From: Nitrospiria bacterium
GTDB taxonomy: Bacteria > Nitrospirota > Nitrospiria > SBBL01 > JAADHI01
Length of the DNA: 61,882 nucleotides
NCBI GenBank assembly: GCA_046756925.1
Contig: JBHHXH010000004.1
Span: 1-61,882 of the forward strand
Reading direction: 5' to 3'
In this document: positions 10,064 through 33,449 of the stretch, one piece after another
Numbering within the stretch: the stretch's first letter is position 1
Layout of the letters: each line of letters opens with the position of its first letter
The notes under the pieces: generated by a model
What the model was told of the DNA's origin: nothing
Seen by the model: the letters and a program-made list of their open reading frames with translations, nothing else
Databases searched by the model: none
Program-made: the position numbers and the translations under genes

Positions 10064-12955
10064 ATGATCGTCGATACCCATGCTAAAAAACACAAGGACA
10101 CCACCGGCTGCGAAAAACGCAAAAAGTTTTTAAGTCTAAAGTGGAAAGTCCTCTTATGGGCCAGCCTGGTGCTTCTGATTGTCAATGTGTCCTTTCCTTT
10201 TCTCCACTATCGACATCTTATCGGTCAATTCGATGGACACCGCAATGCAGTCCACAAACAGTATGCAAGAGAATTCGAAAAACGATTGAAGCAAACTGCG
10301 GATCACTTGCAGCGCCTTGGAAGCCTCATCCCGTCTCTCGACGGGATGAGGGCGGCTTTGGCATCCCATGAAAACGATAAGATCGCTGCGGTCTTCGATC
10401 CACATTGGACACGGATACGATCGAACAATCGCATCGATACCCTTCGATTTTATTCGGACGCCGGAAAAACCCTGGCAAGTTGGGGTGCGAGTGGTGCGCT
10501 CGCTGAACAAGACCCCTTGATTAAGACATGGATCGACAAGGCAGCGGCGAGCGGACATCCCCTAATGGCCCTTTTATGCCGAAGGGAATGTACCCAATAT
10601 GTACTGACACCGATACGATTGGATGGAAAAACGGCCGGAACCCTTTTATTGGGAACCGCGCTTTCCAGGATGATCGCCGATTTTCAACAGATATCCGGCA
10701 TCGATATCGGACTGATCGTCAAGAGCGGAGGAAACCACACCCCCTCGGCACACCCTTCTGCCGGGATACCGTCATGGAACGCACATGTCGCATCCCTCAC
10801 CCACGAGGGTCATACCTTGCCGCTTCTAAAATGGATCGCAGGGCAAAACCCTTCGCTGGACCCTGCGAAAACAAGTCGAAAGACCACCTTCAATCAGATC
10901 GACTATGACATCGGGTTTATCCCCCTGCACGGACTGGCCGACGGCGGATCGGGACACCTTGTGATTATAGGCGATATCTCCGAAGCGCTCTCCAAGATAC
11001 GGATCGTCACGAAAAGAAGTTTGTTGGCCGGGTTCTTAAGCCTCCTGTTTTCGGAAGTATTCCTTTTTATGATCCTCTCGAACCCGACCACGCGCTTGGT
11101 GCGGATCGCCGAAACCCTGCCGCTGCTGGCGCAAAGCGCATTTGGATACGTTCGATCATCCGTCCGATGGAAAGAAAAGCACTGGAGGACCGACGAGATC
11201 GATATTCTGGGGAATACCGCCATTTCTCTTTCATATCAATTGGAAAAACTCGAAAACGAAGTACAAAAACGGACCAAGACCCTTGCGGACAGGATGGACG
11301 AACTTTCCACGGAAAAGGCCTTTGTGTCCAATCTTCTCGACACGGCGCGAGTCATCATCCTGACACAAAACGACACGGGCGAAATTGTGATGGTCAATCA
11401 ACACGGAAGCGATCTCACCGGCTACCCGCAAGGGGACTTGTCGGGAAGGAAGTTCACTTCGCTCCTGGCCCCCGATCAGACCAGCCCCGATTTGGCGGAG
11501 GCGCTGATCAAGCTGGTGGACGGGAAACAGGGGGATCTCTCGCACGAATCGGTCATCTCCTGCCGGGATCGCTCGACACGGCATGTCCTATGGTTTCATT
11601 CGCATCTGGCGAGGAAGGACGCGAAAGATCCCGCCATTCTATCCGTCGGGCTCGACTTTACCGCACGGAAACGCGCGGAGCTGCGTCTGTCTTGGTTGGC
11701 CGATCACGACTCCCTGACCGGTCTCTTCAACCGGAGACGCTTTCAAAGCGAAACCGACCGCATCCTCGCCGAGGCAAAGCGCTACAACCGATCGGGCGCC
11801 TTATTGGTATTCGATCTCGACCAATTCAAATATGTCAACGACACCCGAGGACATCATGCAGGAGACATGCTCCTGAAAGCGGTGGCGGACCACCTGTCTC
11901 GCATCGTCCGGTCCACCGATTTTGTCAGCCGCCTGGGAGGCGATGAATTTGCGCTGGTCATCTCCGAAGTCGGTCAAGAGGGGGCCGTACAGGTCGCCGA
12001 AAAAATCATCGAATTCTTAAACGAAGTCGAGATCCCCGTCTTTGAAGATTGCTACAAAGTGTCGGCCAGTATCGGGATCGCCCTTTTTCCGAAACACGGC
12101 ACGACAGTTCAAAAACTCCTTTCGAATGCCGACATCGCCATGGTGCAGGCAAAAGATCGAGAGCGCGGCAACTGGCACATCTTTTCGGGTCAGGAGCCGA
12201 TCAAGGCACGCATGCAGAAGCGCGCCTATTGGGAAGACAAGATCAAACAGGCCCTCGACAAGGACGATTTCGTACTCCACTTTCAACCGGTTCAAGATGT
12301 TTCGAATGGGTCGACCTATTTTTACGAAGCCTTGTTGCGCATGCATCATGACGAAAAGCTGATCCTACCAGGCGCCTTTATCCCGATTGCCGAAACATGC
12401 GGCCTGATTTTTCCGATCGACCACATGGTCCTCAACAAGGTGATTGCCGCACAGGCGCACTTGGCAAGCAAAGGCGTGCAGACCACCTTTGCGATCAATC
12501 TTTCGGGCCATGCATTCAACGACCGGGAACTTCTCCCCCACTTGGAAAAAACCTTAAGGCATTCCGGCGCCGATCCGAAATCCATCATACTGGAAATCAC
12601 GGAAACCGCAGCGGTATCCGACCTCGTCGCCGCCTGTACCCTCATGGAAGAGATAAAAGCCTTGGGCTGCCGTTTTGCGTTGGACGATTTCGGGATGGGA
12701 TTCTCTTCATTCAACTATATGAAACAATTGCCGGTCGACTTCGTGAAAATCGGAGACACCTTTATTCGAGATCTGTCCACGCACGCCGACGACCAGATCT
12801 TCGTGAAATCCTTAAGCGAAGTCACAAGGGGCCTCGGGAAAAAAACCGTCGCGGAAGGCGTCGAAGATGAAAAAACCCTCGCCTTGCTCCGCGAATATGC
12901 CGTGGATTTCGCCCAAGGCTACCATGTAGGAAAACCGGCGCCGACAATCGTTTAA
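10064..12955 (+). CDS. Membrane sensor (Cache-like periplasmic region)-PAS-GGDEF-EAL c-di-GMP enzyme, copy 1
   Basis: Two TM segments around a ~270 aa periplasmic region, PAS, HDSLTGL, RSTD I-site, GGDEF, EALLR, EITE, DDFGMG, AEGVE and QGY. Confidence 0.92.
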   Translation: MIVDTHAKKHKDTTGCEKRKKFLSLKWKVLLWASLVLLIVNVSFPFLHYRHLIGQFDGHRNAVHKQYAREFEKRLKQTADHLQRLGSLIPSLDGMRAALASHENDKIAAVFDPHWTRIRSNNRIDTLRFYSDAGKTLASWGASGALAEQDPLIKTWIDKAAASGHPLMALLCRRECTQYVLTPIRLDGKTAGTLLLGTALSRMIADFQQISGIDIGLIVKSGGNHTPSAHPSAGIPSWNAHVASLTHEGHTLPLLKWIAGQNPSLDPAKTSRKTTFNQIDYDIGFIPLHGLADGGSGHLVIIGDISEALSKIRIVTKRSLLAGFLSLLFSEVFLFMILSNPTTRLVRIAETLPLLAQSAFGYVRSSVRWKEKHWRTDEIDILGNTAISLSYQLEKLENEVQKRTKTLADRMDELSTEKAFVSNLLDTARVIILTQNDTGEIVMVNQHGSDLTGYPQGDLSGRKFTSLLAPDQTSPDLAEALIKLVDGKQGDLSHESVISCRDRSTRHVLWFHSHLARKDAKDPAILSVGLDFTARKRAELRLSWLADHDSLTGLFNRRRFQSETDRILAEAKRYNRSGALLVFDLDQFKYVNDTRGHHAGDMLLKAVADHLSRIVRSTDFVSRLGGDEFALVISEVGQEGAVQVAEKIIEFLNEVEIPVFEDCYKVSASIGIALFPKHGTTVQKLLSNADIAMVQAKDRERGNWHIFSGQEPIKARMQKRAYWEDKIKQALDKDDFVLHFQPVQDVSNGSTYFYEALLRMHHDEKLILPGAFIPIAETCGLIFPIDHMVLNKVIAAQAHLASKGVQTTFAINLSGHAFNDRELLPHLEKTLRHSGADPKSIILEITETAAVSDLVAACTLMEEIKALGCRFALDDFGMGFSSFNYMKQLPVDFVKIGDTFIRDLSTHADDQIFVKSLSEVTRGLGKKTVAEGVEDEKTLALLREYAVDFAQGYHVGKPAPTIV

Positions 12956-13002
12956 AAGCCTACGCCACCATTTTATTCTGCCGGAATGGATCAGGAGGAC
13001 CT

Positions 13003-13275
13003 ATGCGCTTTGTAATGATCGGTCGAGACGGCCCGGAGGGCCAGGAAAAGAGAAAACGTTGCAGAGAAGGGCACATACAGCGTTTAAAGACACTCGATAA
13101 AGAACACAAATTAATCCTCGCCGGTCCCTTTGCGGACAAAAGCGGCAGCCTCATCGTCTTTGAAGCCGAATCATTTGAAGCAGCCAAAGCTTTTGCGGCT
13201 GAAGACCCCTACGTAAGAGAATCCGTCTTCGAAAGCTACGAAGTAAGACCTTTCAAACAGGTCTTTCCTGAGTAA
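13003..13275 (+). CDS. yciI: YciI family protein
   Basis: R..H..RL, AGPF, GSLIV and AEDPY motifs; AGGAGG RBS. Confidence 0.88.
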   Translation: MRFVMIGRDGPEGQEKRKRCREGHIQRLKTLDKEHKLILAGPFADKSGSLIVFEAESFEAAKAFAAEDPYVRESVFESYEVRPFKQVFPE

Positions 13276-13488
13276 CCCTCAGGTCCCACCCTACTTTTGC
13301 GGCCTTAAATTCGATATCTCGGTTTTCGAGCTGCATATATATACCCATATCAGAAAGGGCACCCACCCAGATCGGCACTAAACGACCCTCGACTATAAGT
13401 CGAGAGATTCACGAAGGGTCGATTGAAATCGACGTCATCCACCTTGCATAAAATCGTTTTTACTCAAGTGCAGAATCACGATATCTTT

Positions 13489-13514
13489 TCCTATATAGAA
13501 ATCCTATATAGAAA
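13489..13514. repeat. 13-bp tandem duplication TCCTATATAGAAA x2
   Basis: Exact adjacent copies at 13489-13501 and 13502-13514, each containing the palindrome CTATATAG. Confidence 0.9.
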
Positions 13515-13840
13515 CGCTTCCCCTGGATGAAGAGAAACCAAGAAAGAAATCGACTCCACAAGTATATATGGATCATTACAATCCATATTTAAGGCTCCGG
13601 ACCAATACACAATGTCCCAGTTACCAAAACCGGCCCATAACCATAAAATTTCATTATTAATAAAAAATAAGTACGATATTAGAATGAACTAACGATTATA
13701 GCATGTATATTGCTTTTTTATTGCCCGGATCTATTGTCCTTCGGTACACGCAACACCGGCCTATGATCTTATAGATTACCGGCCTTAGGAATACCTTAGC
13801 CTATATTTTATAGCAATTATATTGTATTTAAGGAGATCAA

Positions 13841-14608
13841 ATGAATTTGACCGAAAGTTTCAACCATCACTTTCAAATCGTAACACCCAATTCAGACAAA
13901 TTAATGCAAGAGGCGATGCATCTGCGGTATATGGTATATTGCGTCGAAAATACGTTGGCTGAACCGAAAGACCACCCGTCCCACATTGAAACAGACCGTT
14001 ACGATCGCCATTCAGTGCATCGACTCATTCAACATAAGCGCACCGGTGTACTTGTCGGCTACGTCAGGTTGATCCTGTCGTCTTCAATCGGCAGATGGAA
14101 CCGGCTCCCGATTGAAGAAAATTTTAACCGGGTCTTTTATAAGGACGCCCTCAAATCCGTTCAACTCAAGAGAAAATCACTTTCTGAAATCTCCAGGTTT
14201 ATCGTTTCTAAACGGCGATTACAAAGAATTACAAATAGGCACCTGCGGGATTCGGACAAAAAAGATACCGGCCCCCTTTTCCTACCGCCGGTGGCACTCG
14301 GATTGTTCAAGGCCATATTTAACATGGCCATGGAAAAAAATGTCGTGCATAGCTATGCGTGCCTCGAACCTCCGTTGTTGAGATTATTAAAAAGGTTCGG
14401 CATCGTTTTTAAACCGATCGGGCCAATAGTCGACTATCACGGCAAAAGGTTGCCCTGTTTTCGGAGTATTGTGTCCTTATTGTCCGGAATATATCTAAGC
14501 CGCCCTGATATCTGGAGATTTATCATTCAAGACAGCCACGGGCAAGACAGTCACGGGGTGTATTTAAACGATGACGGGAAACCGTATTGGTTCCGTGAGG
14601 TGTCTTGA
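13841..14608 (+). CDS. PEP-CTERM/exosortase-associated-type acyltransferase (ExoAT / N-acyl amino acid synthase-like, GNAT/LuxI-like fold)
   Basis: LRYxVYCVE, ETDRYDRHSVH, VGYVRLI, LPIE, EISRF, EPxLxRLL.RFG and IGP.VDYHGKRxP motifs; AAGGAG RBS. Confidence 0.8.
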   Translation: MNLTESFNHHFQIVTPNSDKLMQEAMHLRYMVYCVENTLAEPKDHPSHIETDRYDRHSVHRLIQHKRTGVLVGYVRLILSSSIGRWNRLPIEENFNRVFYKDALKSVQLKRKSLSEISRFIVSKRRLQRITNRHLRDSDKKDTGPLFLPPVALGLFKAIFNMAMEKNVVHSYACLEPPLLRLLKRFGIVFKPIGPIVDYHGKRLPCFRSIVSLLSGIYLSRPDIWRFIIQDSHGQDSHGVYLNDDGKPYWFREVS

Positions 14609-14634
14609 TCTTAAAGGGTGACTTAAAGGGTGAA

Positions 14635-15054
14635 ATGAGATCTTTCTTATTTCTCTTTATATTGATATACCTTGCCGCAACGAGCTCTACGACGAATGCC
14701 CAAGCCGTGGTTGTCAATAAAAGTGTCGGTCAGAAAGAGATTTCAAAGAACGCCCTTCGGGCTATTTTCGGTATGCGCCTGAATAAGTGGCCCAACGGCA
14801 CAGGGGTGAAAGTTTTTGTTCTGAGAGACAACGCCCCGCTCCATATCAAATTTTGCAAAAAAGTCTTAAATGTTTTCCCCCACCAGTTACGGCGGGCCTG
14901 GGACAGGCTAATTTATTCGGGAACGGGTCAAGCGCCGTTTGAAGTCGCTTCAGAGAAAGAGATGCGTCAAAAGATCGCGAATACACCTGGGGCAATCGGC
15001 TACTTAGTGATGGAGAAGAACGATACCGATGTCAAAATACTACAAGTACGCTAA
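14635..15054 (+). CDS. Small secreted type-2 periplasmic-binding-like protein (single lobe, ~140 aa)
   Basis: Signal peptide; VVVN, LRAIF...WPNG, W.RLIYSGTGQAP and PGAIGYL motifs. Confidence 0.75.
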   Translation: MRSFLFLFILIYLAATSSTTNAQAVVVNKSVGQKEISKNALRAIFGMRLNKWPNGTGVKVFVLRDNAPLHIKFCKKVLNVFPHQLRRAWDRLIYSGTGQAPFEVASEKEMRQKIANTPGAIGYLVMEKNDTDVKILQVR

Positions 15055-16249
15055 GTTTCTTAATATTGGGAAATTCGTAGCGGTGTTCACTCTCTTCTGG
15101 ATGCAAGCGTTTTTCGTTCCGCCTGCCCATGGCCAAGGATGGTCCGATAGCCTCCAGTTTCACGGGTTTGCCAGCCAGGGCTTTATCGATACCACCGATA
15201 ATAACTTCTTCGGAAAGAGTGAGAACGGAAGTTTCGACTTCACCGAGCTGGGAATCAATGCTTCGATTCGACCGGTTCCCGACTTGCTCTTCTCGGCACA
15301 AATCCTATCACGCCGTGCCGGCAAAGGAGATCGCGGCAATATAAGGTTAGACTACGGCCTCGTCGATTTCAGTATCCTCTCTAACGGGATGGGCAGTCTA
15401 GGTATCCGCATCGGCAAAATAAAGAACCCTTTCGGATTTTACAACGAGACGCGGGATGTGGCCTTTACCCGCCCAAGCATATTCCTTCCCCAATCGATTT
15501 ACTTTGTCCGCACGCGGAACCCGGCCTTATCGTCAGACAGTCTTATCGCTTATGGGGAACGACAGATGGCGTCAGGAAATCTATTTTTTCAAGTCGGATT
15601 GGGCTACCCGAATGTCGATGGCATCGAGACGGAACGCGCCGTCCTCTTATCGGACCGCCTTGGAAGACTCGACGATCAACTTTCATACATCGGAAGTATC
15701 CTTTTCGAACAAAATGAAGGAGAAGTTCGACTGGGACTCAGCAGCGCCGTCGTCAATATTAATTACAAGCCCGGAACAGGCGATCCGCTTCGAGCAGGAT
15801 CCATCCGTTTTAGGCCCTTGATTTTTTCCGCCCAATACCATGCCGAATCGTGGAGTATCACCTCGGAATACGCACTCCGTTTCTTTAAAAAAAAGGACCT
15901 TGTCGCCATCCCGGATAGCGAACAAACGGGGAAGAGTTTTTACCTACAGGGCACATATAGAATCCTCAAGCGCTTAGAAGGGGTCATCCGTTATGATCTC
16001 CTTTATCAGGACCGTGACGACAAAAACGGAAACAAGTTTACTTCCCAAACGGGCCTTCCCAACCATCTTGTATTCGCCAAAGACTGGACATTCGGTTTGC
16101 GCTGGGATATAACGAATTCACTGATGTCACGTATCGAATACCATCATGTGGACGGTACCGCCTGGCTTCCACTCTTGGATAACCCCGACCCGTCCTCCAT
16201 AAAACAGGATTGGAATATGTTTGCATTTCTGCTTTCTTACCGTTTTTAA
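15029..16249 (+). CDS. Outer-membrane beta-barrel (porin-like)
   Basis: Signal peptide; HGFASQG, G.IK.PFGFYNETRDV.FTRP motif; alternating aromatic strands; C-terminal BAM signal FLLSYRF. Confidence 0.8.
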   Translation: MSKYYKYAKFLNIGKFVAVFTLFWMQAFFVPPAHGQGWSDSLQFHGFASQGFIDTTDNNFFGKSENGSFDFTELGINASIRPVPDLLFSAQILSRRAGKGDRGNIRLDYGLVDFSILSNGMGSLGIRIGKIKNPFGFYNETRDVAFTRPSIFLPQSIYFVRTRNPALSSDSLIAYGERQMASGNLFFQVGLGYPNVDGIETERAVLLSDRLGRLDDQLSYIGSILFEQNEGEVRLGLSSAVVNINYKPGTGDPLRAGSIRFRPLIFSAQYHAESWSITSEYALRFFKKKDLVAIPDSEQTGKSFYLQGTYRILKRLEGVIRYDLLYQDRDDKNGNKFTSQTGLPNHLVFAKDWTFGLRWDITNSLMSRIEYHHVDGTAWLPLLDNPDPSSIKQDWNMFAFLLSYRF

Positions 16250-16263
16250 ACAGGCATCACAGT

Positions 16264-19146
16264 ATGACCGAAAAACCAAAGAATAATCATCTCCGTTCCG
16301 GCAGGCTTCGACGCTTTTTAAGCCTCAAGTGGAAGGCCTTGTTATTCTTCAGTTTGGTTTTGATCGCGATAAACGCCTCTTTCCCTCTCCTGAGCTACAT
16401 CAACCTGACGAGACAGTTTGATGCGCGTCGTGTCATGGCTCACCAACAACACGCCCTGGCCTTTGAAGGGATATTGGAGCAGACCTCACAACGCTTGGTG
16501 CAACTGGGCGGCATCATTCCCTCCCTAAAGGGGATGGAAAAGGCTCTTTCCACCGGTGGGGAAAAAGAGATCGTTGCGGCATTTGGAAATCATTGGCCCC
16601 TGTGGCAACTGGATACAGGGATCAGTACAGCTCGTTTTTATTCGGAAAGAGGCCAGGAATTGGCAGCTTGGGAAAGTCTTGAAGCAACAGAGACCCAAGA
16701 TCCGGCTTTCGTCAGCATGAACGAAGCCGTCCGCAAAAAAGAAGCCCCCGTGACCGCTCTGTCGTGCAACAAGGTCTGTTCCGAGTATGTCATGATTCCA
16801 GTTCTCTCCAGTGGCAGGAATACCGGCGCGATATTATTGGGAACATCATTGGCCGACGTGATTTTAAGTTTTCGAAAAATTTCCGGCGTCGATACCGGTA
16901 TCATGATCGACAAGAGGAAGGACGAACAGCCCGCAGCCAATGCTTCTAAATCCATTTCATCATGGAATTCCGAACTGATCGCCCTGACAAACATGGATCG
17001 GACAATTCCGCTTCTAAAGAAGACCGCGCAAGAAGCCCCGTCAATCGATACAGTTAAAAGAGGCCGAAAAATCGATTTCGACAACAGGATTTATGAACTA
17101 CGCCTGATCCCGCTACAAGGGATGGTTCATGCTGGCTCGGGGCATATCGTCATCATAGACGATATTTCCGAACCCCTGTCGGAAATACGTGCAGCGACTC
17201 AACAAAGTATGTGGGCGGGGTTGATCGGCCTCTTTATTTCAGAAGGGCTTCTATTGGTCTTTTTATCAGCACCGATGAAACGACTCAGCCGTATTGCAAC
17301 AACCCTTCCGCTCCTTGCCCAAAATGCATATCGAGATTTTCGCCAAGCTGCAGTAAAACGAAAGCAGGTCTGGGTCACGGATGAAATCGATACACTGGGG
17401 GAGACCGCCATTACACTTTCTTTCCAATTGGAAAACCTTGACGAGGAAGTCAAGAAACGGACCCAAAGTCTTGCGGACAGGATGGAGGAGCTGACAAGCG
17501 AAAAGGCCTTTATTTCCAATCTGCTCGATACCGCACGGGTCATCATCTTAACGCAAAATAAAAACGGCAAGGTCATCACCTTTAACCGGTACGGGAGCAA
17601 TTTAACCGGTTACTCGCTCTCCGAGCTCATCTCCAAGCCCTTTCTAGACCTTTTGTCCGGAGCGGATCTCTCACCCGAGCTTTCGGAAGGGCTCTTGCAG
17701 ATCGGCCTGGGACAACGGAATCATTTCTCCCACGAATCGGTCTTGACCTGTAAAAACGGGTCGAAACGCTATATCGTCTGGTTCCACTCCCGCATCGAGA
17801 GAAAAGGGGAGGGCAAGGCCGCTGTTTTATCCGTCGGTCTCGATTTTACAGAGCGCAAACAGGCGGAGACGCGCCTTGCTTGGTTGGCGGATCACGACCC
17901 GCTGACGGGTTTGTACAATCGCCGCCGTTTTCAGAAAGAGCTCAACCGGGTTCTCGACGAGTCGAATCGATTCAACCAAAAAGGCGCCCTCCTTTTCTTC
18001 GACCTCGATCAGTTCAAATACGTTAACGACACCCGAGGCCATCACTCGGGAGACGCCCTCCTTCAGGTCGTCGCCAAACGGCTTTCGCAACTGGTCAGAC
18101 CGACCGATTTTATCAGCCGTTTGGGTGGAGACGAATTTGCTTTCGTGATATCCAAAACGGATCGGAAAGGCGCGATTAAAATGGCGGAGAAGATTTCAAA
18201 AAACTTAAACGACATCGAAATTCCCTATCTTGAGCACAGATACAAGGTCTCCGCCAGCATCGGAATTGCGCTCTTTCCAAATCACGGCAATTCGCTGCAA
18301 GCACTCCTCTCCAACGCAGATCTGGCAATGTACCAGGCCAAGGATCGCGCGCCCGGCCGTTGTCATGTCTACTCCAGTCGGGAACCCATTCGAGAAAAAA
18401 TGCAGAAACACGCCTATTGGGAGGACAGGATCAAACAGGCACTGGATAAAGACGGTTTTGTCATCCATTATCAACCGGTCATGCGTGTATCGAAAGGTTC
18501 GATTTCCTTTCATGAAGCGCTGATCAGGATGCGAAACAAAGATGATTCACTGATATCCCCCGGCGTGTTTATTCCGATCGCGGAGGCCTGTGGTTTGATC
18601 CATTCCATCGATCATTTGGTATTAAAAAAGGTCATTTCAACCCAGGCGTCATTGGCCCAAAAAGGCGTACACGCCACGTTCACCATCAATCTTTCCGGCC
18701 ATGCAATGAATGACAGGGCGCTTCTTCCCCTTTTGCGGAAAACCTTAAAACAAACCGGGGCGGATGCAAGAGCAATTATTTTCGAAATCACCGAAACTGC
18801 CGCGGTATCCGATCTGAGGGCGGCGTGCAAGCTGATGCTCGAAATCAAGAGCCTCGGCTGCCGTTTCGCACTGGACGATTACGGCATGGGCTTTTCGTCT
18901 TTTAACTATATGAAACAACTGCCCGTCGATTTTGTAAAAATAGGCGACACCTTTATCAAAGGATTAACCACCCAAACCGACGATCAAATCTTTGTCAAAT
19001 CGTTGAGTGAAGTCACAAGGCATCTTGAAAAAAAAACAATCGCCGAAGGAGTGGAAAGCCACGAGACACTGGCCTTGCTCCAAGAATACGCCGTCGATTT
19101 CGCCCAGGGCTACTATGTGGGAAAGCCGGCGCCGATGATCGTTTAG
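16264..19146 (+). CDS. Membrane sensor-PAS-GGDEF-EAL c-di-GMP enzyme, copy 2 (paralog of 10064..12955)
   Basis: Colinear with copy 1 from FLSLKWK to GKPAPxIV; RPTD I-site, GGDEF, EALIR and DDYGMG. Confidence 0.92.
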   Translation: MTEKPKNNHLRSGRLRRFLSLKWKALLFFSLVLIAINASFPLLSYINLTRQFDARRVMAHQQHALAFEGILEQTSQRLVQLGGIIPSLKGMEKALSTGGEKEIVAAFGNHWPLWQLDTGISTARFYSERGQELAAWESLEATETQDPAFVSMNEAVRKKEAPVTALSCNKVCSEYVMIPVLSSGRNTGAILLGTSLADVILSFRKISGVDTGIMIDKRKDEQPAANASKSISSWNSELIALTNMDRTIPLLKKTAQEAPSIDTVKRGRKIDFDNRIYELRLIPLQGMVHAGSGHIVIIDDISEPLSEIRAATQQSMWAGLIGLFISEGLLLVFLSAPMKRLSRIATTLPLLAQNAYRDFRQAAVKRKQVWVTDEIDTLGETAITLSFQLENLDEEVKKRTQSLADRMEELTSEKAFISNLLDTARVIILTQNKNGKVITFNRYGSNLTGYSLSELISKPFLDLLSGADLSPELSEGLLQIGLGQRNHFSHESVLTCKNGSKRYIVWFHSRIERKGEGKAAVLSVGLDFTERKQAETRLAWLADHDPLTGLYNRRRFQKELNRVLDESNRFNQKGALLFFDLDQFKYVNDTRGHHSGDALLQVVAKRLSQLVRPTDFISRLGGDEFAFVISKTDRKGAIKMAEKISKNLNDIEIPYLEHRYKVSASIGIALFPNHGNSLQALLSNADLAMYQAKDRAPGRCHVYSSREPIREKMQKHAYWEDRIKQALDKDGFVIHYQPVMRVSKGSISFHEALIRMRNKDDSLISPGVFIPIAEACGLIHSIDHLVLKKVISTQASLAQKGVHATFTINLSGHAMNDRALLPLLRKTLKQTGADARAIIFEITETAAVSDLRAACKLMLEIKSLGCRFALDDYGMGFSSFNYMKQLPVDFVKIGDTFIKGLTTQTDDQIFVKSLSEVTRHLEKKTIAEGVESHETLALLQEYAVDFAQGYYVGKPAPMIV

Positions 19147-19185
19147 AAACCCCTCTCTTCTCCGGCGGAATAAGGAGATGCCGAT

Positions 19186-19302
19186 CGATTTGTATTCATC
19201 GCTCGAATAGCCAGGACCTTTGCCGCCGAAGACGCCGACGTGAAAGACGCCATTTTCGAAAGTCGTGAAGTGAGGCCTTTCAAACAGGTTTTTCCTCCAT
19301 GA
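19186..19302 (+). pseudogene. yciI: Internally deleted yciI copy with lost start codon
   Basis: Reads RFVFIAR-IARTFAAEDADVKDAIFESREVRPFKQVFPP* versus the intact MRFVMIGR...AKAFAAEDPYVRESVFESYEVRPFKQVFPE*. TAAGGAG RBS is retained. Confidence 0.85.
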
Positions 19303-19517
19303 ATATCATGAGAGGGTTGGGTAATGTAACATGCATGTTGCAAGACCTGACTCTAAAAAGCTTGTCAATAATCTTTCTGAAATTTGAGTCTCACAAAAGG
19401 AATTTCTATTGGGATACTGAGCAGTGATTTTAACCTTTCAAGGGCATCCTTGAGACGATTCTTGATGACATTTTAAGTATCACTGAAACGGACGAGGACA
19501 GATTTTAAAAGGACCCA

Positions 19518-20840
19518 TCAGTCCTGCGGGATCTTTTCCATCATTTCACTGATTTCTGTCTTCGTTTCATCGATCAGTTCATTTGAAAACTTGAGGATTT
19601 TTGCCGACTCGACGTTTCGTAAATCAATTTGCGGTGGCTCAGACTGCCCATATCCCATGTCCTTTACAATCCAATTTGCAAGGTGAATCACCAGGAGTTC
19701 TTTGAAAATGAGATCTGCTTCGCCAAGGTTATCATGCCATAAGGCAACCTGGGCATATTCCGGGGAGTACCGCCACTTCTTCAGAAGAGAGGCGCCAAAC
19801 TGTCCGTGATTTGCGTTTAGAATCTCAATGACTTCTCTCCGGTCCGCTTTCTTTGAGAAAGCTCCTCTATTTTCTAAATCAATGATAATCTTCAACAGCA
19901 TGAGCTTGCCGATATCATGAAGCATCCCCATTGAGAAAATTTCCTCTGGGTTCTTGAGCTGAAGGCGTTTTGCAATCGCTTCCGCTCCATAGGCGCAAGA
20001 AAGGGAGTGTTTCCAAAGCGCTTTCAGATAGTCTTGGTACTCATTGTTTTCAATGGTATAAAGTGAGCGATTCGCGGTTAACTCTACATAGTTTCTTGTG
20101 GCACCCAATCCTAAGCGGTTAACCGCCTGAACCAAGGATTTGTTTTTCGTCAGACCTTGGTAATAGGGGGAATTTGAAACGCTGATGAGTCTAGATGAAA
20201 TGGCAACGTCTTTCTTGAGGAGTTCGGTAATCTCAGAGATACTTCCCTGTTTTGCAATTATTTTTTTGAACTGAATCGCAATCTCCGGAAGCGCAGGGAG
20301 ATTGACCTCGTCTTTCTTGAGCGAGGAAATAATCTCATCCAAAATCCCGCGTTTTTTATCCTCAGCCAATAGATCCTTTCGATCCCTTCCTTGGAGGGTT
20401 TCCGGAGAATTCTTTTCTAAGCGCTCTTCTAATTTGGTGACACGTTGCCTTAGAGTGACGATCGTTTGCTTCATCTCTTCATGTTCTCTGGAACGGCGTA
20501 TCGCCTCTTCGACTGAAAATCCTAATAATTCCCAATAATTTCCCGTCTTGACAATATAGTTGTACGCACCCGCGCTCAATGCTTCAGAAGCACAATTTGG
20601 ATCCTCTGGCGAAGTCACCATTAGTATGGGTATATAGATCTTACTCACGACGATTTTAAGAAAGTCCAGCCCCTTTTTTTCTGTAAAGTTCTGGTCTAAA
20701 AGAATGAGTTGGCATTTTTCCAGACCTCCATCGAATTGCTCAACAGAGGTGATCGTCATGATCCGATAGTTGTTTCTCAGATCTTTTTGAATCCGATCTA
20801 TTTCCTGTGGGTCACTGTTCGCGATGAGAATCGATTGCAC
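19518..20840 (-). CDS. Response regulator with REC + coiled coil + HDOD domain
   Basis: LILLD phospho-Asp, LMVT, GAYNYIVK; HDOD motifs LPALP, NSPYY, LWKHS and LHDIGK. Confidence 0.88.
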   Translation of the reverse strand: MQSILIANSDPQEIDRIQKDLRNNYRIMTITSVEQFDGGLEKCQLILLDQNFTEKKGLDFLKIVVSKIYIPILMVTSPEDPNCASEALSAGAYNYIVKTGNYWELLGFSVEEAIRRSREHEEMKQTIVTLRQRVTKLEERLEKNSPETLQGRDRKDLLAEDKKRGILDEIISSLKKDEVNLPALPEIAIQFKKIIAKQGSISEITELLKKDVAISSRLISVSNSPYYQGLTKNKSLVQAVNRLGLGATRNYVELTANRSLYTIENNEYQDYLKALWKHSLSCAYGAEAIAKRLQLKNPEEIFSMGMLHDIGKLMLLKIIIDLENRGAFSKKADRREVIEILNANHGQFGASLLKKWRYSPEYAQVALWHDNLGEADLIFKELLVIHLANWIVKDMGYGQSEPPQIDLRNVESAKILKFSNELIDETKTEISEMMEKIPQD

Positions 20841-22963: not shown

Positions 22964-23342
22964 AGGCATCACCTCCCTAGATGTATCCAATTGACCTATC
23001 GTTTCACCTTTAAAGACCGAAGGCACCAATATTCCATTCAAAAATTGAGTATAATACCTTGATTGCCTCATTTATATTTATGATACAAATCATATTTTAT
23101 TTAGATCCATATCATAGAATAGGAGCATCGCTATAGAAGAGTCAAGACGTTCTATCGATGATGCACTTTAACGGAACGACACCCGTTTCCAAAGGGTCTT
23201 AAGCCGACCTAAAATCGCGTCTTTGCTCGAACCCGGAATGGGGCATACAGTACCGTTTTATCCATCCCCGCAATTCATTGACACCGCTTCATAGGGCTTG
23301 TAGACTGAATATATCAGGATCGTATGCCTTGGAGTGCAGTCC

Positions 23343-24722
23343 ATGGGAAGATCCACACCGACCCTCGCAGAACGATTTGCCCGCTACAGCCAAAAGCTTG
23401 CATACCATAATTTCCCGGAGGAAGTGGTGCATGAAGCCAAGCGGCGGCTGATTGATACCCTGGGTTGCGCTCTGGGCGGCTGGGGAAGCCGCCCTTGCAA
23501 AATCGCACGGCGAATGGCCGACCGCGTAAGGTTGAAAAACGGGGCGACCCTTCTCGGAACGAATCAAAAAACGACTCCCGATCTGGCCGCCTTCGCCAAC
23601 GGCACGGCCATACGCTACCTCGACTACAACGACACCTATCTCTCCAAGGAACCGGCCCATCCCAGTGACAACATCTCGGCGGTGTTGGCCGCGGCGGAAA
23701 CCGGCGGCGACGACGGCAAGCGTGTCATCGAAGCCGTTGTTTTGGCTTACGAAATCCAGTGCCTTCTTTGCGATGCCGTGGCCTTGCGGCCGCGCGGCTG
23801 GGACCATGTGTGCTACGGCCCCTTTTCCACCGCTCTTGCGGTTTCGAAATTATGGCGTTTGCCGGAAGAAAAAACCGTCCACGCCTTGGGTCTTGCCGGA
23901 AATCCGAATAACGCGCTTCGCCAAACACGGGTGGGCGATCTTTCGATGTGGAAGGGCGTGGCTTTCGCCAACGCGGCCCGCAACGGGGTTTTCGCGGCGG
24001 AGCTGGCGCGCTTGGGCATGAGCGGTCCCGCCCCTATCTTCGAAGGCGAGAAGGGTTTTATGAAGATCGTCTCCGGATCTTTCGAGCCACCGGTTTTGCG
24101 GCCCAAGGGCCCTTTTAAAATCATGGAAACCTATATCAAGTATTATCCCGTGGAATACCATGCGCAGAGCGCCGTGCAAGCCGCGTTAAATCTTCGTCAA
24201 AAATTACCGAAGCATTTTTTGAAAAAGATCGAAGCTGTCCGTGTGCACACCTCCGATATTTCTTATGAGATTATCGGGAACGATCCCGACAAATGGCATC
24301 CGCTTACAAGGGAGACGGCCGATCATTCCCTGCCCTACATCGTCTCCGTTGCGCTCATGGACGGCAAGGTCGGCCGGGCGCAATTTAACGGCCGCCATCT
24401 GAAAGATCCAAAACTGCATCGCCTGATTCAAAAGGTCCGTGTGTTTTCCGACAAAAACCATTCCGCCGCATACGGCCAAACCATGGGCAATACCCTCAGC
24501 CTAAAGATCGATGGCCAGACCTACCGCGAGCGCGTGGATCTGCCGAAGGGCTTTCCGAAAAACGAGATGACGGACGAAGAAGTGGAAGCGAAATTCAGGG
24601 GCATGGCGGGACCGCTTTTGTCCAAGGCGGCAATACAAAAGATTCTCGATGCGCTTTGGAAATTTGAAACGGCAAAAGGGGTCGAACCGCTCCTAAAACT
24701 TTTTCTAGTAAAGAAAACTTGA
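23343..24722 (+). CDS. prpD: 2-methylcitrate dehydratase (MmgE/PrpD)
   Basis: RYLDYNDTY, HPSDN, GWDH, WKG and ETADHSLPY motifs; operon with prpB and prpC. Confidence 0.92.
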   Translation: MGRSTPTLAERFARYSQKLAYHNFPEEVVHEAKRRLIDTLGCALGGWGSRPCKIARRMADRVRLKNGATLLGTNQKTTPDLAAFANGTAIRYLDYNDTYLSKEPAHPSDNISAVLAAAETGGDDGKRVIEAVVLAYEIQCLLCDAVALRPRGWDHVCYGPFSTALAVSKLWRLPEEKTVHALGLAGNPNNALRQTRVGDLSMWKGVAFANAARNGVFAAELARLGMSGPAPIFEGEKGFMKIVSGSFEPPVLRPKGPFKIMETYIKYYPVEYHAQSAVQAALNLRQKLPKHFLKKIEAVRVHTSDISYEIIGNDPDKWHPLTRETADHSLPYIVSVALMDGKVGRAQFNGRHLKDPKLHRLIQKVRVFSDKNHSAAYGQTMGNTLSLKIDGQTYRERVDLPKGFPKNEMTDEEVEAKFRGMAGPLLSKAAIQKILDALWKFETAKGVEPLLKLFLVKKT

Positions 24723-25621
24723 TGATTACACCATCACCAGGACGTCGGCTACGATCTCTACTCCAAGAAAAACCGCTTCTCTTGCCGGGCGCCTTTAATG
24801 CCCTCTCTGCACAATTGATCGCACAAGCCGGTTTCGAGGCCGTCTATATCTCCGGAGCAGGCCTGGCCAACGGGGTGGCGGGTTTGCCGGACATCGGCCT
24901 TTTGAGTGTAACGGAGGTAACAACACAGGTGCGGTATATCACGAACGCCGTCGGCATTCCGGCCATTGCAGACGCCGATACGGGATTCGGCGAGGGCATC
25001 CATTTCTTAAGAGCAATGGCGGCCTTCGAATCGGCGGGCGTCGCGGGGATTCAAATCGAAGATCAGCGGTTTCCCAAGCGCTGTGGTCATCTTGACGGAA
25101 AACAGTTGATCGACGCCGGTGCAATGGCGCAAAAGATCCGCGCCTTGGCGGAACATCGCGAAGATCCCGACACAATGATCATCGCCCGAACCGATGCCCG
25201 GGGCGTCACAAGTCTGGAAGATGCCATCGCGCGCGCCAATCGTTATATTGATGCCGGGGCCGATATGATCTTTCCCGAGGCCTTGGAGTCGGCCGAGGAG
25301 TTTAACGAATTCGCACAAAAAGTGGGAGGGCCGCTCTTGGCGAACATGACCGAGTTCGGTTTAAGCCCGGCGCTTTCCGCAAGCGCACTCTTCGCGATGG
25401 GTTATCGCATCGTCCTGTTTCCCATGACGCTTTTGAGGATTGCGGCCGGGGCGATGGAACAAGGTCTGGAACAACTAAAAAAACAAGGCACTTCCGATCA
25501 GATGCTCGATCGGATGCAGACGCGTGAAGCGCTGTATCGACTCATCCGATACGAGGACTACGAAGCCCTCGATTCGAAGATCGCCGGTAGACGCCCGCGG
25601 CGAGAAGGAAAGCAAAAATGA
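24719..25621 (+). CDS. prpB: Methylisocitrate lyase
   Basis: DADTGFG, EDQ.FPKRCGH, ARTDA, IFPEAL and LANMTEFG motifs. Confidence 0.93.
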   Translation: MMITPSPGRRLRSLLQEKPLLLPGAFNALSAQLIAQAGFEAVYISGAGLANGVAGLPDIGLLSVTEVTTQVRYITNAVGIPAIADADTGFGEGIHFLRAMAAFESAGVAGIQIEDQRFPKRCGHLDGKQLIDAGAMAQKIRALAEHREDPDTMIIARTDARGVTSLEDAIARANRYIDAGADMIFPEALESAEEFNEFAQKVGGPLLANMTEFGLSPALSASALFAMGYRIVLFPMTLLRIAAGAMEQGLEQLKKQGTSDQMLDRMQTREALYRLIRYEDYEALDSKIAGRRPRREGKQK

Positions 25622-26739
25622 CAGACAAGGTATATCATGGATTGGAGGGCGTGCTGGCCGGAGAATCGGCCATCTGTGAAGTCGATCACGCCTCGGGCGG
25701 GTTGCGTTATCGAGGGTACCGAATCGAAGATTTGGCGGAGCGGGCCTCCTTCGAAGAGGTGTCCCATCTCCTCTTGATGGGCTCGCTTCCGGACCGGGAG
25801 GCGCTGGCCGCCTTTCGCCGGCACTGGGTGGAGGCCCGGCCGGTTTCAGCCACAGTGCTCAATTTTTTGCGCGGCATCCTCGCCACCGTGAATCGAATGG
25901 ACGCCCTCAGGACCGCCGTCTCGATCCTGGGGCTGGAAGACCCGGATCACGGCGTCAATGACCGCGCCGCCGACCTCGGGAAGGCGATCCGGCTGTGTGC
26001 GCAAATGCCCCTCCTCTTGGCGGCGCTGCTCAATCGCTCCGTAGACACGGCATTGATATCGGAGGCTTCACTTTCCCATGCCGAATACCTCTTGAGCCTT
26101 CTCACCGGGGCCAAACCGGATCCTTTTTCCGTCAAAGTGATCAATGTTTCACTCATCCTCTATGCCGAACATGAGTTCAATGCCTCCACCTTTGCCGCGC
26201 GCGTCACGGCATCGACCTTGTCCGATCTACATGCCGCGGTATGCACGGCGATCGGAACCCTCAAGGGCCCCTTGCACGGCGGCGCAAACGAGGCCGTCAT
26301 GGAAATGCTCATCGCATTGGATCGACGTGGAAAAATCAAGAAAGACATTTTAGAACGGCTAGCAAAAAAGGAACGCATCATGGGCTTCGGCCATCGCGTC
26401 TTAAAAAAGGGGGATCCCCGATCCGATATCATCAAGGCATATACAAAAGCCTTGGGGGAACGGAAAGGCCATCGAAAATGGGCTGAGCTTTCCGCGGAGA
26501 TTGAAGCCATCATGCGGAGCGAGAAAGGGCTTTATCCGAACCTCGATTTCTATTCGGCTTCGGCCTATTACCTGCTAGGCCTGCCCATTCCGATCTATAC
26601 CCCGCTTTTTGTCTGCAGCCGCGTCACGGGATGGGCCGCCCATGTGATCGAGCAGCATGAACACAACCGCCTCATCCGGCCCAGAGCCAAATATACGGGG
26701 GAAAAACCGCGGCCCTTTGTCTCCATCGACGATCGGTGA
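25618..26739 (+). CDS. prpC: 2-methylcitrate synthase / citrate synthase
   Basis: YAEHEFNAST, GPLHGGANE, IMGFGHRV, PNLDFY and RLIRP motifs. Confidence 0.9.
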   Translation: MTDKVYHGLEGVLAGESAICEVDHASGGLRYRGYRIEDLAERASFEEVSHLLLMGSLPDREALAAFRRHWVEARPVSATVLNFLRGILATVNRMDALRTAVSILGLEDPDHGVNDRAADLGKAIRLCAQMPLLLAALLNRSVDTALISEASLSHAEYLLSLLTGAKPDPFSVKVINVSLILYAEHEFNASTFAARVTASTLSDLHAAVCTAIGTLKGPLHGGANEAVMEMLIALDRRGKIKKDILERLAKKERIMGFGHRVLKKGDPRSDIIKAYTKALGERKGHRKWAELSAEIEAIMRSEKGLYPNLDFYSASAYYLLGLPIPIYTPLFVCSRVTGWAAHVIEQHEHNRLIRPRAKYTGEKPRPFVSIDDR

Positions 26740-31271: not shown

Positions 31272-31966
31272 CAGCGCTTTCCTTCCTCAATGGCGTAGCG
31301 AAAGGGATCCGGTTCGGGATTGAAATCGGGTTTTTCGCTGGATGCGTCCTGAGGCGCGTGGGTTTTCCTCAGTTGGACCAGCAGGCGGCTGCCGTAATGC
31401 TCGATCTCGTAAACCAAACGGTCTTTCCGGCCTTGAAGATAGTAATGTGCAATCAAGGCCGGAATGGCGACGGCCATGCCGGAGACGGTTGTAATGAGCG
31501 CGACCCAAATACCCGAGGCCAAAAGCGCCGGAGACAGGGCACCTTGGATCAGGGACAGACGTTGAAAAGAGAGGACCATGCCCACCACCGTCCCCAACAG
31601 CCCCAGCATGGTGGAAACGGGTGGGATGAGGCCGAGCAAGGCCAGTCCTTTCGCGGCCTCCCGGTCGATTTCTTCTCCACGGATCGCCATGCGCTCCGCA
31701 ACGATCTCCGGATCTTCTGCCGGTTCATTCAGTCCGAGTTGTAAAATGCTGCCGATGGGACCGGTGAGGGTTGCGGCAATCGCGGCCGCTTCTTTTTCCT
31801 TCCCGATCGACAACAAATTTTCCACCCGCTCAAAACGCGCTTTAAGCGCTTTTGAGCGGGTGAACCAAAAATACCAGAGCCGTTCCAAGGTAACGGCCAG
31901 GGCGATGACGGAAGCGACGAGGATGGGGTGCATCAAAAAACCGCCTTTTAGGTAGAGCTCAAGCAT
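31271..31966 (-). CDS. exbB: MotA/TolQ/ExbB proton channel protein
   Basis: KGGFLM.PI, LGLLGTV.GM and GI.VALITT motifs; start at ATG 31966. Confidence 0.88.
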   Translation of the reverse strand: MLELYLKGGFLMHPILVASVIALAVTLERLWYFWFTRSKALKARFERVENLLSIGKEKEAAAIAATLTGPIGSILQLGLNEPAEDPEIVAERMAIRGEEIDREAAKGLALLGLIPPVSTMLGLLGTVVGMVLSFQRLSLIQGALSPALLASGIWVALITTVSGMAVAIPALIAHYYLQGRKDRLVYEIEHYGSRLLVQLRKTHAPQDASSEKPDFNPEPDPFRYAIEEGKR

Positions 31967-32783
31967 GGCCGGGCAAGGCCTCCTCGTGTCCGCGATCCCT
32001 TGAGCGCCCGATCGGGACGATACACAGCCCGCCGGTGGTGGGATGCCGGGAAAGCGCGGCGTCGATGCCGTAGACCCTGCGAAGGCTTTCGGCGGTGAGG
32101 ACGGCTTCGGCCTTGCCGATGGCGACGATTTGCCCTTCATGGAGCAGAGCCAGGCGCCGGCAGTAGCGTGCGGCCAGGTTCAAATCGTGAATCGCCATGA
32201 CCACGCCGACATCTTTTTTAACTAAAGCGGCGACGAGGTCGAGCAGGCCGAGCTGGTAATGCGGATCGAGATTGGCCGTCGGCTCATCCAAAAAAAGCAG
32301 CCCCGCCTCTTGCGCCAGGGCCCGCGCCAGCAAGACGCGTTGCAGTTCGCCGCCGGAGAGTTCCGTAATCAAACGCGCCGCGAGGCTATCTGTTTCCGTC
32401 ATCCGCATGGCCTCGCGGGCGATGGCGGTGTCTTCCTCCGAAATCGGATCGAAGCGCCCGCAGTGGGCATAGCGTCCCATCAGCACCACTTCTTCGCAAG
32501 TGAAGGGACTGTCCAGGGCCGGACCCTGCGGCAGGTAGGCAAGCCGCCGGGCAAGGGCCTTTTGCGACCACAGGCCAATAGGTTTACCCTCCAGCAAAAT
32601 CGTCCCGCCGTCCGGCCTGAAGGCCCGAATCATCAGTTTCATCAAGGTGGTTTTACCCGCCCCGTTGGGACCGATAAGGCCGAGGATTTCGCCCTTTTCG
32701 ATTTGAAGATCGATGCCGCTTAAGATCATCTTGCCCTTTCTGGAAAAAGACACTGCGTCAAGTTCCATGCCGTCATTCATCAT
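31959..32783 (-). CDS. Iron-chelate/cobalamin/haem-type ABC transporter ATPase
   Basis: GPNGAGKTT, LSGGE.QR, LDEPTANLD and HDLNLAARYC motifs. Confidence 0.88.
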   Translation of the reverse strand: MMNDGMELDAVSFSRKGKMILSGIDLQIEKGEILGLIGPNGAGKTTLMKLMIRAFRPDGGTILLEGKPIGLWSQKALARRLAYLPQGPALDSPFTCEEVVLMGRYAHCGRFDPISEEDTAIAREAMRMTETDSLAARLITELSGGELQRVLLARALAQEAGLLFLDEPTANLDPHYQLGLLDLVAALVKKDVGVVMAIHDLNLAARYCRRLALLHEGQIVAIGKAEAVLTAESLRRVYGIDAALSRHPTTGGLCIVPIGRSRDRGHEEALPGHA

Positions 32784-32831
32784 TTTAGACTTCACTCGTG
32801 TGTAGAAAGGTTTCCTGAAAAATAGAGTGAT

Positions 32832-32847
32832 TTGATCTTAAAATCAA
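32832..32847. promoter_or_regulatory. Candidate operator TTGAT-N6-ATCAA inside a longer imperfect inverted repeat (32822-32855)
   Basis: Inverted repeat ~50 bp upstream of the ABC-ATPase/exbBD/tonB operon; regulator not identifiable. Confidence 0.35.
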
Positions 32848-32978
32848 GTCTCTATCGAGAACAGATCGAAGGGCTGATCTTCCTTTGCCTTTCATTCGGC
32901 GTTTCAGTTATATTTCCCGAGAGGATTTTGAGATCGTTCGAATTTCAGGCGGGCCATCACATGATGGTGGAAGACACA

Positions 32979-33449
32979 ATGGACGTCCAAGACAAGCCGT
33001 CTCATTCGATGGACGAAGAACAATATATTCAAGACCGGCTTGAGGACCAACTCAACTGGTACGATAGGAAAAGCGGCGCGTGCCAGCGCCGTTACAAATG
33101 GCTCCGGGCGATTGAAATCGTCTGCGCGGCCTTGATTCCCTTCACGGTCGGGCCAGTGCTCAACAAGTCGGAACTTTCCGCCATTGTCGCGGGGGCTTTG
33201 GGGGTGACGGTATCCATCGTCGCGGGTTTGATGACCTTGTATAAGTATCAAGAGAATTGGATCAAGTACCGCACCACGGCGGAATCCCTCAAACACGAAA
33301 AATTTCTTTATCAAACCAAGACCGAGCCTTATGACGACACGGAACCTTTTCCGTTGTTGGTGAAGCGAGTGGAGTCGCTTATTTCTAAAGAAAATACGGA
33401 ATGGGCCGGGAATATGGCGACGCAGAAAAAGGAGCGGGAGGAGGCATAA
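32979..33449 (+). CDS. DUF4231 / SLATT-type two-TM protein
   Basis: Y..DRL.DQ..WY.RKS, two TM helices and QENWI.YRTT.E.LK.EK motif. Start uncertain (32961-33009). Confidence 0.82.
   Translation: MDVQDKPSHSMDEEQYIQDRLEDQLNWYDRKSGACQRRYKWLRAIEIVCAALIPFTVGPVLNKSELSAIVAGALGVTVSIVAGLMTLYKYQENWIKYRTTAESLKHEKFLYQTKTEPYDDTEPFPLLVKRVESLISKENTEWAGNMATQKKEREEA

Follow-up and report, generated by a model that had tools for sequence, protein, structure and literature searches.

A recurrent four-gene cassette joins a LuxI/FeeM-type N-acyltransferase to a porin, a single-lobe PstS-like protein, and a predicted c-di-GMP sensor

[quoted passage not shown] Enzymes of the TIGR03694 kind are described in an excerpt of PMC7293339 as making N-acyl amino acids and as linked to PEP-CTERM and exosortase, while a passage of PMC11072679 reports that an ExoAT knockout in Methylomonas LW13 lost a polysaccharide band, and one in PMC4897644 calls the physiological role of these synthases unclear. 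Here we analyze positions 13,841 to 19,146 of contig C4 (JBHHXH010000004.1; all 61,882 nucleotides form the window) from a Nitrospiria bacterium (GenBank: GCA_046756925.1; 2.68 Mb, 148 contigs, 97% complete), whose relatives in public databases carry the labels Nitrospirota, Nitrospiria, or Candidatus Manganitrophaceae. Four same-strand genes in this segment, hereafter the cassette, encode an N-acyltransferase, a small periplasmic binding protein (PBP), an outer-membrane porin, and an inner-membrane sensor with domains for cyclic di-GMP (c-di-GMP) turnover. The cassette supplies a concrete candidate receptor and output for N-acyl amino acids, making their purpose directly testable.

Several described systems share parts of this design. 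DSF/BDSF (diffusible signal factor) signaling pairs RpfF with RpfC/RpfG, or with the PAS-GGDEF-EAL receptor RpfR, and couples a diffusible fatty-acyl-derived signal to c-di-GMP turnover; a LuxR-independent route from signal to c-di-GMP is therefore of a known kind. Synthase and receptor genes are adjacent in both cases and a c-di-GMP readout is proposed for the cassette, but the DSF synthase is a crotonase rather than a GNAT/LuxI-like enzyme, and sensing in the cassette would be periplasmic, by way of the porin and the half binding protein. NspS-MbaA, LuxP-LuxQ, and TorT-TorS are binding-protein-dependent sensors whose partners are full two-lobe proteins. They too encode a binding protein beside a membrane sensor with a periplasmic domain, and MbaA has a GGDEF-EAL output; the cassette protein, in contrast, is a single lobe of 139 residues that comes with its own porin and a link to a synthase, and it is connected to its sensor by gene adjacency. 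With LuxI/LuxR, the cassette shares an enzyme of the same fold class that passes the Autoind_synth cut-off and a synthase gene adjoining that of the presumed receptor, although here this receptor is periplasmic with c-di-GMP as output. In keeping with the LuxR independence first proposed for the locus, a genome-wide search at E ≤ 0.01 turned up no LuxR-type Autoind_bind domain (PF03472) in the 97%-complete assembly (E. coli control positive).

Phosphate uptake by PstS and OprP-OprO offers a further parallel, as the binding protein corresponds to one PstS lobe, OprP is among the fold matches of the porin, and Porin_O_P occurs in the porin's Atlas neighbors; unlike PstS, the cassette protein has neither the second lobe nor Ser-Gly-Thr at the aligned stretch, and no ABC transporter is adjacent. 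The TIGR03694 enzymes of PEP-CTERM/exosortase systems are known counterparts of the cassette enzyme, which scores well above the family cut-off in a lineage that has PEP-CTERM proteins and whose relatives have exosortase. The cassette enzyme differs in being tied to a trio of porin, half-PBP, and c-di-GMP sensor, whereas those found beside PrsT, PepA, and ThiF-like genes group separately. An independent genetic link of N-acyl amino acid synthesis with c-di-GMP is given by the NAS-PilZ fusions Nas343 and Nas354, for which an excerpt of PMC4897644 describes a c-di-GMP-binding domain on the synthase itself; the cassette enzyme, by comparison, is separate and lies beside a sensor for c-di-GMP turnover. 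What appears to be new is the fixed combination of enzyme, private porin, single-lobe PstS-derived protein, and sensor, the enzyme itself being an ordinary TIGR03694 member. A full-text literature search found no description of the cassette, its scope leaving aside subscription papers, supplements, and the 2011 paper on TIGR03694 enzymes (Craig et al.), which may already mention these neighboring genes.

The arrangement is not peculiar to this genome, and the first outcome that was to refute the original prediction, adjacency of the acyltransferase here only, clearly did not arise. We searched the genomes of 40 relatives with TIGR03694 and compared 11 loci of the host family from the two genera that carry the cassette. 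All genomes of these genera scored above the cut-off (3/3 and 7/7), and the order acyltransferase, binding protein, porin, sensor was kept at 11/11 loci. A scan with a binding-protein profile over one genome per species (185,579 species) gave 343 loci, from which the best 80 by score were analyzed; the fractions reported for these may not hold for all 343, and 10 of them are the same contigs as the host-family loci. The full cassette is present on one strand in 58 of these 80. In the others the acyltransferase is directly upstream but a contig end cuts the locus (7), directly upstream with the sensor further off (2), upstream on the opposite strand (3), elsewhere within the locus (2), or missing (6), and two loci are cut upstream. 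Overall, 67 loci have the acyltransferase immediately upstream and on the same strand, and 72 have it anywhere within the locus; the porin comes after the binding protein in every one of the 77 loci that are long enough. The hosts include Nitrospirota, Nitrosospira, Nitrosovibrio, Nitrosomonas, Sideroxydans, Rhodocyclaceae, and Competibacteraceae, as well as Chromatiales, Thiogranum, Thiodiazotropha, Gammaproteobacteria, Deltaproteobacteria, and Desulfobacterales; the four-gene unit is thus carried by cultured bacteria, among them Nitrosospira multiformis, Nitrosovibrio, and Nitrosomonas. Given that the arrangement is genuine and found in several bacterial phyla, the four genes probably form one conserved, horizontally spread module that works as a single functional unit.

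At least four different flanking contexts were observed, with only the four cassette genes common to them. In Nitrosospira, housekeeping genes (RNase R, RlmB, S6, S18, L9, and DnaB) surround the cassette, which is far from any exopolysaccharide (EPS) locus; in one Nitrospirota genus it is flanked by a histidine kinase and a sigma-54 regulator. The Nitrosomonas flanks hold a sigma-54 response regulator, a TIGR03098 exosortase-A-associated acyl-CoA ligase (792 bits), a TIGR03099 pyridoxal-phosphate-dependent decarboxylase (595 bits), and an AsnB-like amidotransferase. These genes lie directly upstream at L060, L075, L077, L092, L097, L099, L103, L105-L107, and L111, and together with the acyltransferase they resemble a small biosynthetic cluster.

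Divergence was compared over 45 cassettes, comprising that of the window and 44 of the 58 full loci (four genes consecutive, sensor longer than 900 residues; 14 were dropped). Median pairwise p-distances were 0.58 for the sensor periplasmic domain, 0.53 for the acyltransferase, 0.44 for the porin, 0.39 for the binding protein, and 0.34 for the PAS-GGDEF-EAL part. The correlation of acyltransferase distances is r 0.90 with binding-protein distances, 0.88 with porin distances, and 0.92 with distances for the periplasmic domain; the cassette therefore evolves as a unit in which the enzyme is no recent hitch-hiker. Such correlation reflects co-inheritance and is no demonstration of binding; a partial-correlation "mirror tree" was accordingly set aside as evidence for binding partners, since all pairs correlate strongly through shared history. 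That the enzyme and the periplasmic domain change fastest is compatible with a signal and its receptor diversifying together.

Our preferred reading, to which we give a probability of roughly 0.45, is that the cassette is an autocrine loop from a self-made signal to c-di-GMP, perhaps for biofilm control. Gene identities, folds, intact catalytic motifs, synteny across phyla, and co-divergence are observed; from them we infer which ligand is involved, which way it moves, and what phenotype follows. The cytoplasmic LuxI/FeeM-like enzyme would use acyl-ACP to make an N-acyl amino acid or some related N-acyl amine, as its family membership suggests, and the acyl compound would leave the cell and accumulate. 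It would then re-enter the periplasm through the dedicated porin with its invariant constriction loop, to be held by the single-lobe PstS-like protein, alone or with the dCache_3 domain of the sensor. The balance of GGDEF and EAL activities would shift, and c-di-GMP would in turn act on a target that we suppose to be exopolysaccharide or PEP-CTERM-dependent aggregation. The loop is favored because the linkage is tight, ancient, and cross-phylum, with the enzyme first in the operon; because a LuxI/FeeM-type enzyme occurs in a genome without a LuxR-type receptor; because acyltransferase, binding protein, and porin can be duplicated as a unit; and because the trio is a general sensor of outside solutes. 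We offer more tentatively the generalization to a widespread LuxR-independent autoinducer circuit, in which an N-acyl signal outside the cell is read through a porin of its own together with a single-lobe, PstS-derived co-receptor and a dCache_3 GGDEF-EAL receptor; equally tentative, as part of the same claim, is that this circuit sets c-di-GMP, and hence PEP-CTERM/exopolysaccharide aggregation, in ammonia, sulfur, and iron oxidizers and in Nitrospirota. If true, the long-orphan exosortase-associated N-acyl amino acid synthases would gain a physiological role, and a new signal/receptor architecture, with a receptor of three parts (porin, half binding protein, and Cache sensor) feeding c-di-GMP, would be defined. 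The hosts are environmentally important, and the circuit would have consequences for how nitrifying systems flocculate and form biofilms.

The view of the trio as a general device for sensing an outside solute comes from a second trio in the same genome, on contig C7 (Table 1), which also agrees with the statement in the original prediction that small PBP, barrel, and sensor trios recur. Its porin comes first in order, its half-PBP matches PBP_like_2 at 31 bits, and it adjoins a TolC-like gene and has no acyltransferase. Duplications within the cassette family are of several kinds. One genome repeats acyltransferase, binding protein, and porin before a single sensor (copies 48% identical for the enzyme and 64% for the porin), and in other genomes the acyltransferase is present as two or three tandem copies with 46-83% identity, or the porin as two copies with 59% identity. 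Local amplifications of these kinds are found at L039 (=L031), L045 (=L029), L083 (=L033), L096, and L109. The unit duplication in one genome, with enzyme, carrier-like protein, and outer-membrane channel adjacent, would also suit an export route, in which the half-PBP is a periplasmic carrier and the porin the exit channel for an acyl product that has to cross the envelope somehow, the sensor monitoring periplasmic load or an unrelated cue. We regard this as improbable, given that the cassette contains no inner-membrane exporter, that the fold matches of the barrel are diffusion porins and not secretion channels, and that the analogous trio on C7 has no enzyme to export for.

The gene identities first claimed for the cassette hold against Pfam and NCBIfam profiles and structure models, and the TIGR03694, FeeM, and Cache profile searches proposed along with them all returned matches (TIGR03694 at 210.2 bits, PF21926, and dCache_3). 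The match of the acyltransferase to TIGR03694 (PEP-CTERM/exosortase system-associated acyltransferase; cut-off 111.95 bits) covers positions 2-236 of 241, and a six-frame genome search gave the same result. The enzyme also exceeds the Pfam cut-offs of PF13444 (Acetyltransf_5), PF00765 (Autoind_synth; 32.2 bits against a gathering cut-off of 24, positions 35-155 of 183, a partial match weaker than that to TIGR03694), and PF21926 (FeeM; 30.5 bits against a gathering cut-off of 27, over the N-terminal 94 of 158 positions). Among 28 cassette acyltransferases, R29, E50-x-D52-x-x-D55, H65, R76, E92, R111, and E116-x-S118-R119 are invariant, and we take the resulting E-x-D-x-x-D ... R ... E-x-S-R pattern to be the LuxI signature. 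Because of its family membership, the enzyme would more likely produce an N-acyl amino acid than an acyl-homoserine lactone. A sequence search with the acyltransferase retrieved no PDB chain at E ≤ 1. At L034/L035 (G003 contig), the acyltransferase carries an insert of ~55 residues rich in Gly, Arg, and Asn, and the sensor was matched as two pieces separated by a gap, possibly owing to a frameshift or an assembly error.

The dCache_3, PAS, GGDEF, and EAL domains of the sensor all score above their Pfam cut-offs, and two hydrophobic segments (residues 25-46 and 316-338) bracket dCache_3. The protein carries the motifs RPTD-FISRL-GGDEF, HEALIR, DDYGMG, EGVE, and QGY, and across 25 sensor homologues the columns for GGDEF, RxxD, EAL, DDxGxG, and further catalytic residues either do not vary or are conserved to at least 90%. 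With intact GGDEF and EAL motifs, the sensor is predicted to be a bifunctional c-di-GMP enzyme. A periplasmic C168-x3-C172 pair in dCache_3, invariant in 25 homologues, could be a disulfide or a metal/redox site. Upstream of the cassette, and separated from it by the YCII gene, lies a paralogue 57% identical to the sensor. In the loci of 11 relatives, matches to this paralogue coincide with the cassette sensor itself, the exception being L026, which has one further weak match (30%) in the GGDEF-EAL part.

The binding protein is a single lobe, as was originally proposed. Its AlphaFold2 (AF2) model (pLDDT 90.8) fits one half of PstS structures, which are its best PDB matches over ~120-130 residues of one lobe (TM score 0.64 by query and 0.35-0.40 by target, with about one third of each covered), and its signal-peptide-like N-terminus ends in AQA. 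The match to PBP_like_2 is limited to positions 91-189 of 267 and, at 25.2-25.5 bits, falls just below the cut-off of 27; TIGR02136 gave 16.2 bits against a cut-off of 206.6, which places the protein outside the PstS family. Twenty homologues share 26 invariant columns. When the family profile is aligned to 1twy, the REASSGT stretch of that structure stands opposite sDeaplh here, including the invariant D65 and H70. Because this Ser-Gly-Thr stretch, presumably the phosphate-binding loop of 1twy and PstS, aligns to D65...H70, the protein is, as judged by conservation, predicted to be no phosphate binder. An RLxYSGTG motif was considered as the PstS phosphate loop and rejected, as the 1twy profile alignment places the loop elsewhere. 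A model of the complex between sensor residues 47-316 and the mature binding protein scored 0.02 (mark 0.32) and speaks neither for nor against binding. The family consists of small stand-alone proteins. In a library of 50% representatives, its cluster count is 336 at E ≤ 1e-30, rising to 2111 at E ≤ 1e-10, and the best 150 are 94-295 residues long; this large single-lobe PstS-derived family has no curated name and merits study on its own.

The barrel had been called a porin, and its Atlas neighbors, AF2 model, and structural matches bear this out. No Pfam or NCBIfam family was matched even at E ≤ 10, so that Porin_O_P, which is found on 10-14% of the members of the nearest Atlas clusters (themselves porin clusters), is not detected by Pfam in the cassette porin itself. 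The model (pLDDT 85.9) contains 17 strand elements, a pair of which probably represents a single strand, giving a barrel of ~16 strands, and the chain ends in Phe (SYRF). Its best PDB matches are DcaP, OmpT, PorB, chitoporin, Omp32, and OprP (TM score 0.5-0.58 by query). A long loop (residues 133-167) corresponds to the inward loop between strands 5 and 6 of classical 16-stranded diffusion porins; the family's invariant residues are mostly concentrated in it (P134, G136, Y138, N139, T141, R142, D143, R148, P154, Q155, and Y158), as would be expected of a constriction loop.

Several observations weigh against the autocrine loop. General diffusion porins typically pass small hydrophilic or anionic solutes, and the FadL fold serves long-chain fatty compounds; the porin model departs from FadL (3pf1; TM score 0.32 by query, root-mean-square deviation 13.5), and the porin is thus predicted to be of the hydrophilic-solute type. 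The median identity to the window protein is 56% for the binding protein versus 31% for the enzyme, and so conserved a protein is not obviously the ligand-specificity partner of a fast-changing synthase. The correlated distances would be expected from mere co-inheritance as well. Enzyme and trio are also separable in both directions. TIGR03694 exceeded its cut-off in 11 out of a sample of 250 additional Nitrospirota genomes. None of the 11 has a binding-protein match (controls G000, G001, and G013 positive), nor did tblastn match the binding protein, porin, or sensor next to the enzyme, so that this enzyme family works in the absence of the trio. Conversely, six of the best 80 loci hold the trio without an acyltransferase, and among five such genomes, whose completeness is not stated, three have TIGR03694 elsewhere and two have none.

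The cassette could alternatively be a sensor with a lipid output, in which the trio detects some hydrophilic or anionic solute from outside that has nothing to do with the enzyme, and the enzyme is simply co-expressed as part of an aggregation program. The N-acyl amino acid would then serve as surfactant or matrix or as a lipid of the outer membrane, and c-di-GMP might exert control over it. The porin fold fits the hydrophilic and anion channels DcaP, Omp32, and OprP, the binding protein derives from a phosphate-binding lobe, trios without acyltransferase exist in the same genome and among the best 80 loci, and conservation of the binding protein and porin far exceeds that of the enzyme. Two points from a passage of PMC4897644 lean the same way: N-acyl amino acids are described there as biosurfactants, and the NAS-PilZ fusions place c-di-GMP upstream of the synthase, acting on it, which is the direction opposite to that of an autocrine loop. 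The cassette enzyme, however, has no PilZ domain (Pfam finds the acyltransferase domain only in its 255 residues), and it stays linked and first in the operon through transfers spanning at least four contexts and several phyla, besides being duplicated together with the binding protein and porin, all of which is hard to explain for an unrelated output gene. Moreover, sharing an operon gives the sensor no control over the enzyme, since the sensor's output is a nucleotide and not transcription. We consider a lipid output unlikely, though the strongest competitor of the autocrine loop.

The enzyme could instead serve the PEP-CTERM/exosortase system directly, for instance by providing a lipid for sorting or anchoring, and adjoin the trio merely through a common aggregation regulon. 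The TIGR03694 family is defined by its PEP-CTERM/exosortase association, and in the 11 enzyme-only Nitrospirota genomes the enzyme adjoins PrsT, a PEP-CTERM EPS exporter, or PepA; the neighbors at the eight loci scanned include PrsT, an XrtA/PEP-CTERM EPS exporter, a ThiF-like protein, PepA, TolC/HlyD, and dTDP-rhamnose genes. Exosortase is present in 10/10 other cassette-bearing genomes of the host family, and three open reading frames (ORFs) in the host genome have clear PEP-CTERM tails (C30:21834-22745(-), C12:18026-18721(+), and C42:8763-9476(-)). Against such a direct role, no exosortase was found in the 97%-complete host genome with PF09721, TIGR04178, or TIGR02602, and only 4/10 cassette genomes from other phyla, most of them metagenome-assembled genomes of unstated completeness, have one. 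The Nitrosospira cassettes, moreover, lie among housekeeping genes. In a tree of 88 enzymes, cassette-linked and EPS-linked contexts cluster apart, with 2 label changes versus 10.6 in shuffles (0/500 as low); the same tree does not reject monophyly of the non-cassette enzymes (p-AU 0.36). On balance, a direct PEP-CTERM role is highly improbable, slightly more so than the export route.

These results also qualify the description of the cassette in the original prediction. Its statement that the window has no exosortase, PEP-CTERM protein, or LuxR agrees with the genome-wide searches, in which exosortase and Autoind_bind are missing altogether and the PEP-CTERM matches lie on other contigs. No ThiF partner turned up in domain scans of ORFs at 173-29837, none of which was aimed at ThiF, with 30-62 kb lying outside the scanned range. 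The term "self-contained," however, was too strong, given three genuine PEP-CTERM proteins in the genome and an exosortase in every cassette-bearing relative. Because all ten of these relatives have one, the exosortase of the host genome may be unassembled. A link between cassette and exosortase is common but perhaps not obligatory.

The tight packing of the four genes behind an AT-rich leader was described correctly, to the base, in coordinates and junctions (Table 1). If ATG at 14635 and at 16264 is taken as the start, the acyltransferase and binding-protein genes have a 26-nt gap between them, the binding-protein and porin genes overlap by 26 nt, and the porin and sensor genes lie 14 nt apart. 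Each of the first three genes has a ribosome-binding-like motif before its start (AGGAG, GGGTGA, and GGAGAAG, respectively), and a weak one precedes the sensor start at 16264. The GC fraction is 0.34-0.36 across 13400-13850 versus ~0.45-0.52 inside genes. Three sigma-70-like sites lie at 13555-13685 in the leader, in a promoter/terminator scan that was at chance level overall (8 promoter-like sites versus 8.1 expected); for this reason, we infer co-transcription of the four genes from their spacing only. A sigma-54 promoter proposed by eye at ~13707-13722 was rejected, its -24 element having AG instead of GG. No Rfam family was found in 12900-19600, where two sub-threshold matches to long noncoding RNA families are attributable to chance, and the leader therefore contains no c-di-GMP riboswitch. 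No conserved leader motif was found among six upstream regions (the window and five relatives; mean column identity 41%).

Table 1. Positions of the cassette genes, their neighbors, and the second trio of the host genome
Feature	Coordinates	Strand	Basis or remark
Leader, presumed operon promoter region	13276..13840		565 bp
N-acyltransferase, LuxI/FeeM fold, TIGR03694, cytoplasmic, 255 aa	13841..14608	+	Profile matches
Single-lobe PstS-like protein, secreted, 139 aa	14635..15054 (alternative TTG start 14605)	+	Signal-peptide-like N-terminus, AF2 model
Outer-membrane porin, 406 aa, ~16 strands, invariant L3-like loop	15029..16249	+	AF2 model, fold matches
Sensor, TM-dCache_3-TM-PAS-GGDEF-EAL (TM, transmembrane), inner-membrane, 960 aa	16264..19146 (alternative TTG start 16210)	+	Pfam
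Paralogous sensor, same architecture, no binding protein or porin of its own	10064..12955	+	Pfam dCache_3-PAS-GGDEF-EAL
YCII-domain ORF, previous gene	13003..13275	+	Ends 565 bp before the acyltransferase
Second trio: porin, half-PBP, dCache_1-HAMP-PAS(-PAS)-GGDEF-EAL protein	G000:C7 ~31363-36336 (L119 4364-9337)	-	Own genome

Two further features lie downstream in the window. A protein with a response-regulator receiver and an HDOD domain (19518-20840, minus strand) is convergent with the end of the operon; HDOD-type proteins are a signaling family often discussed together with c-di-GMP. Beyond it, a trio of PrpD, a PEP-mutase-family (PrpB-like) protein, and citrate synthase (23334-26739, plus strand) resembles a methylcitrate-cycle operon.

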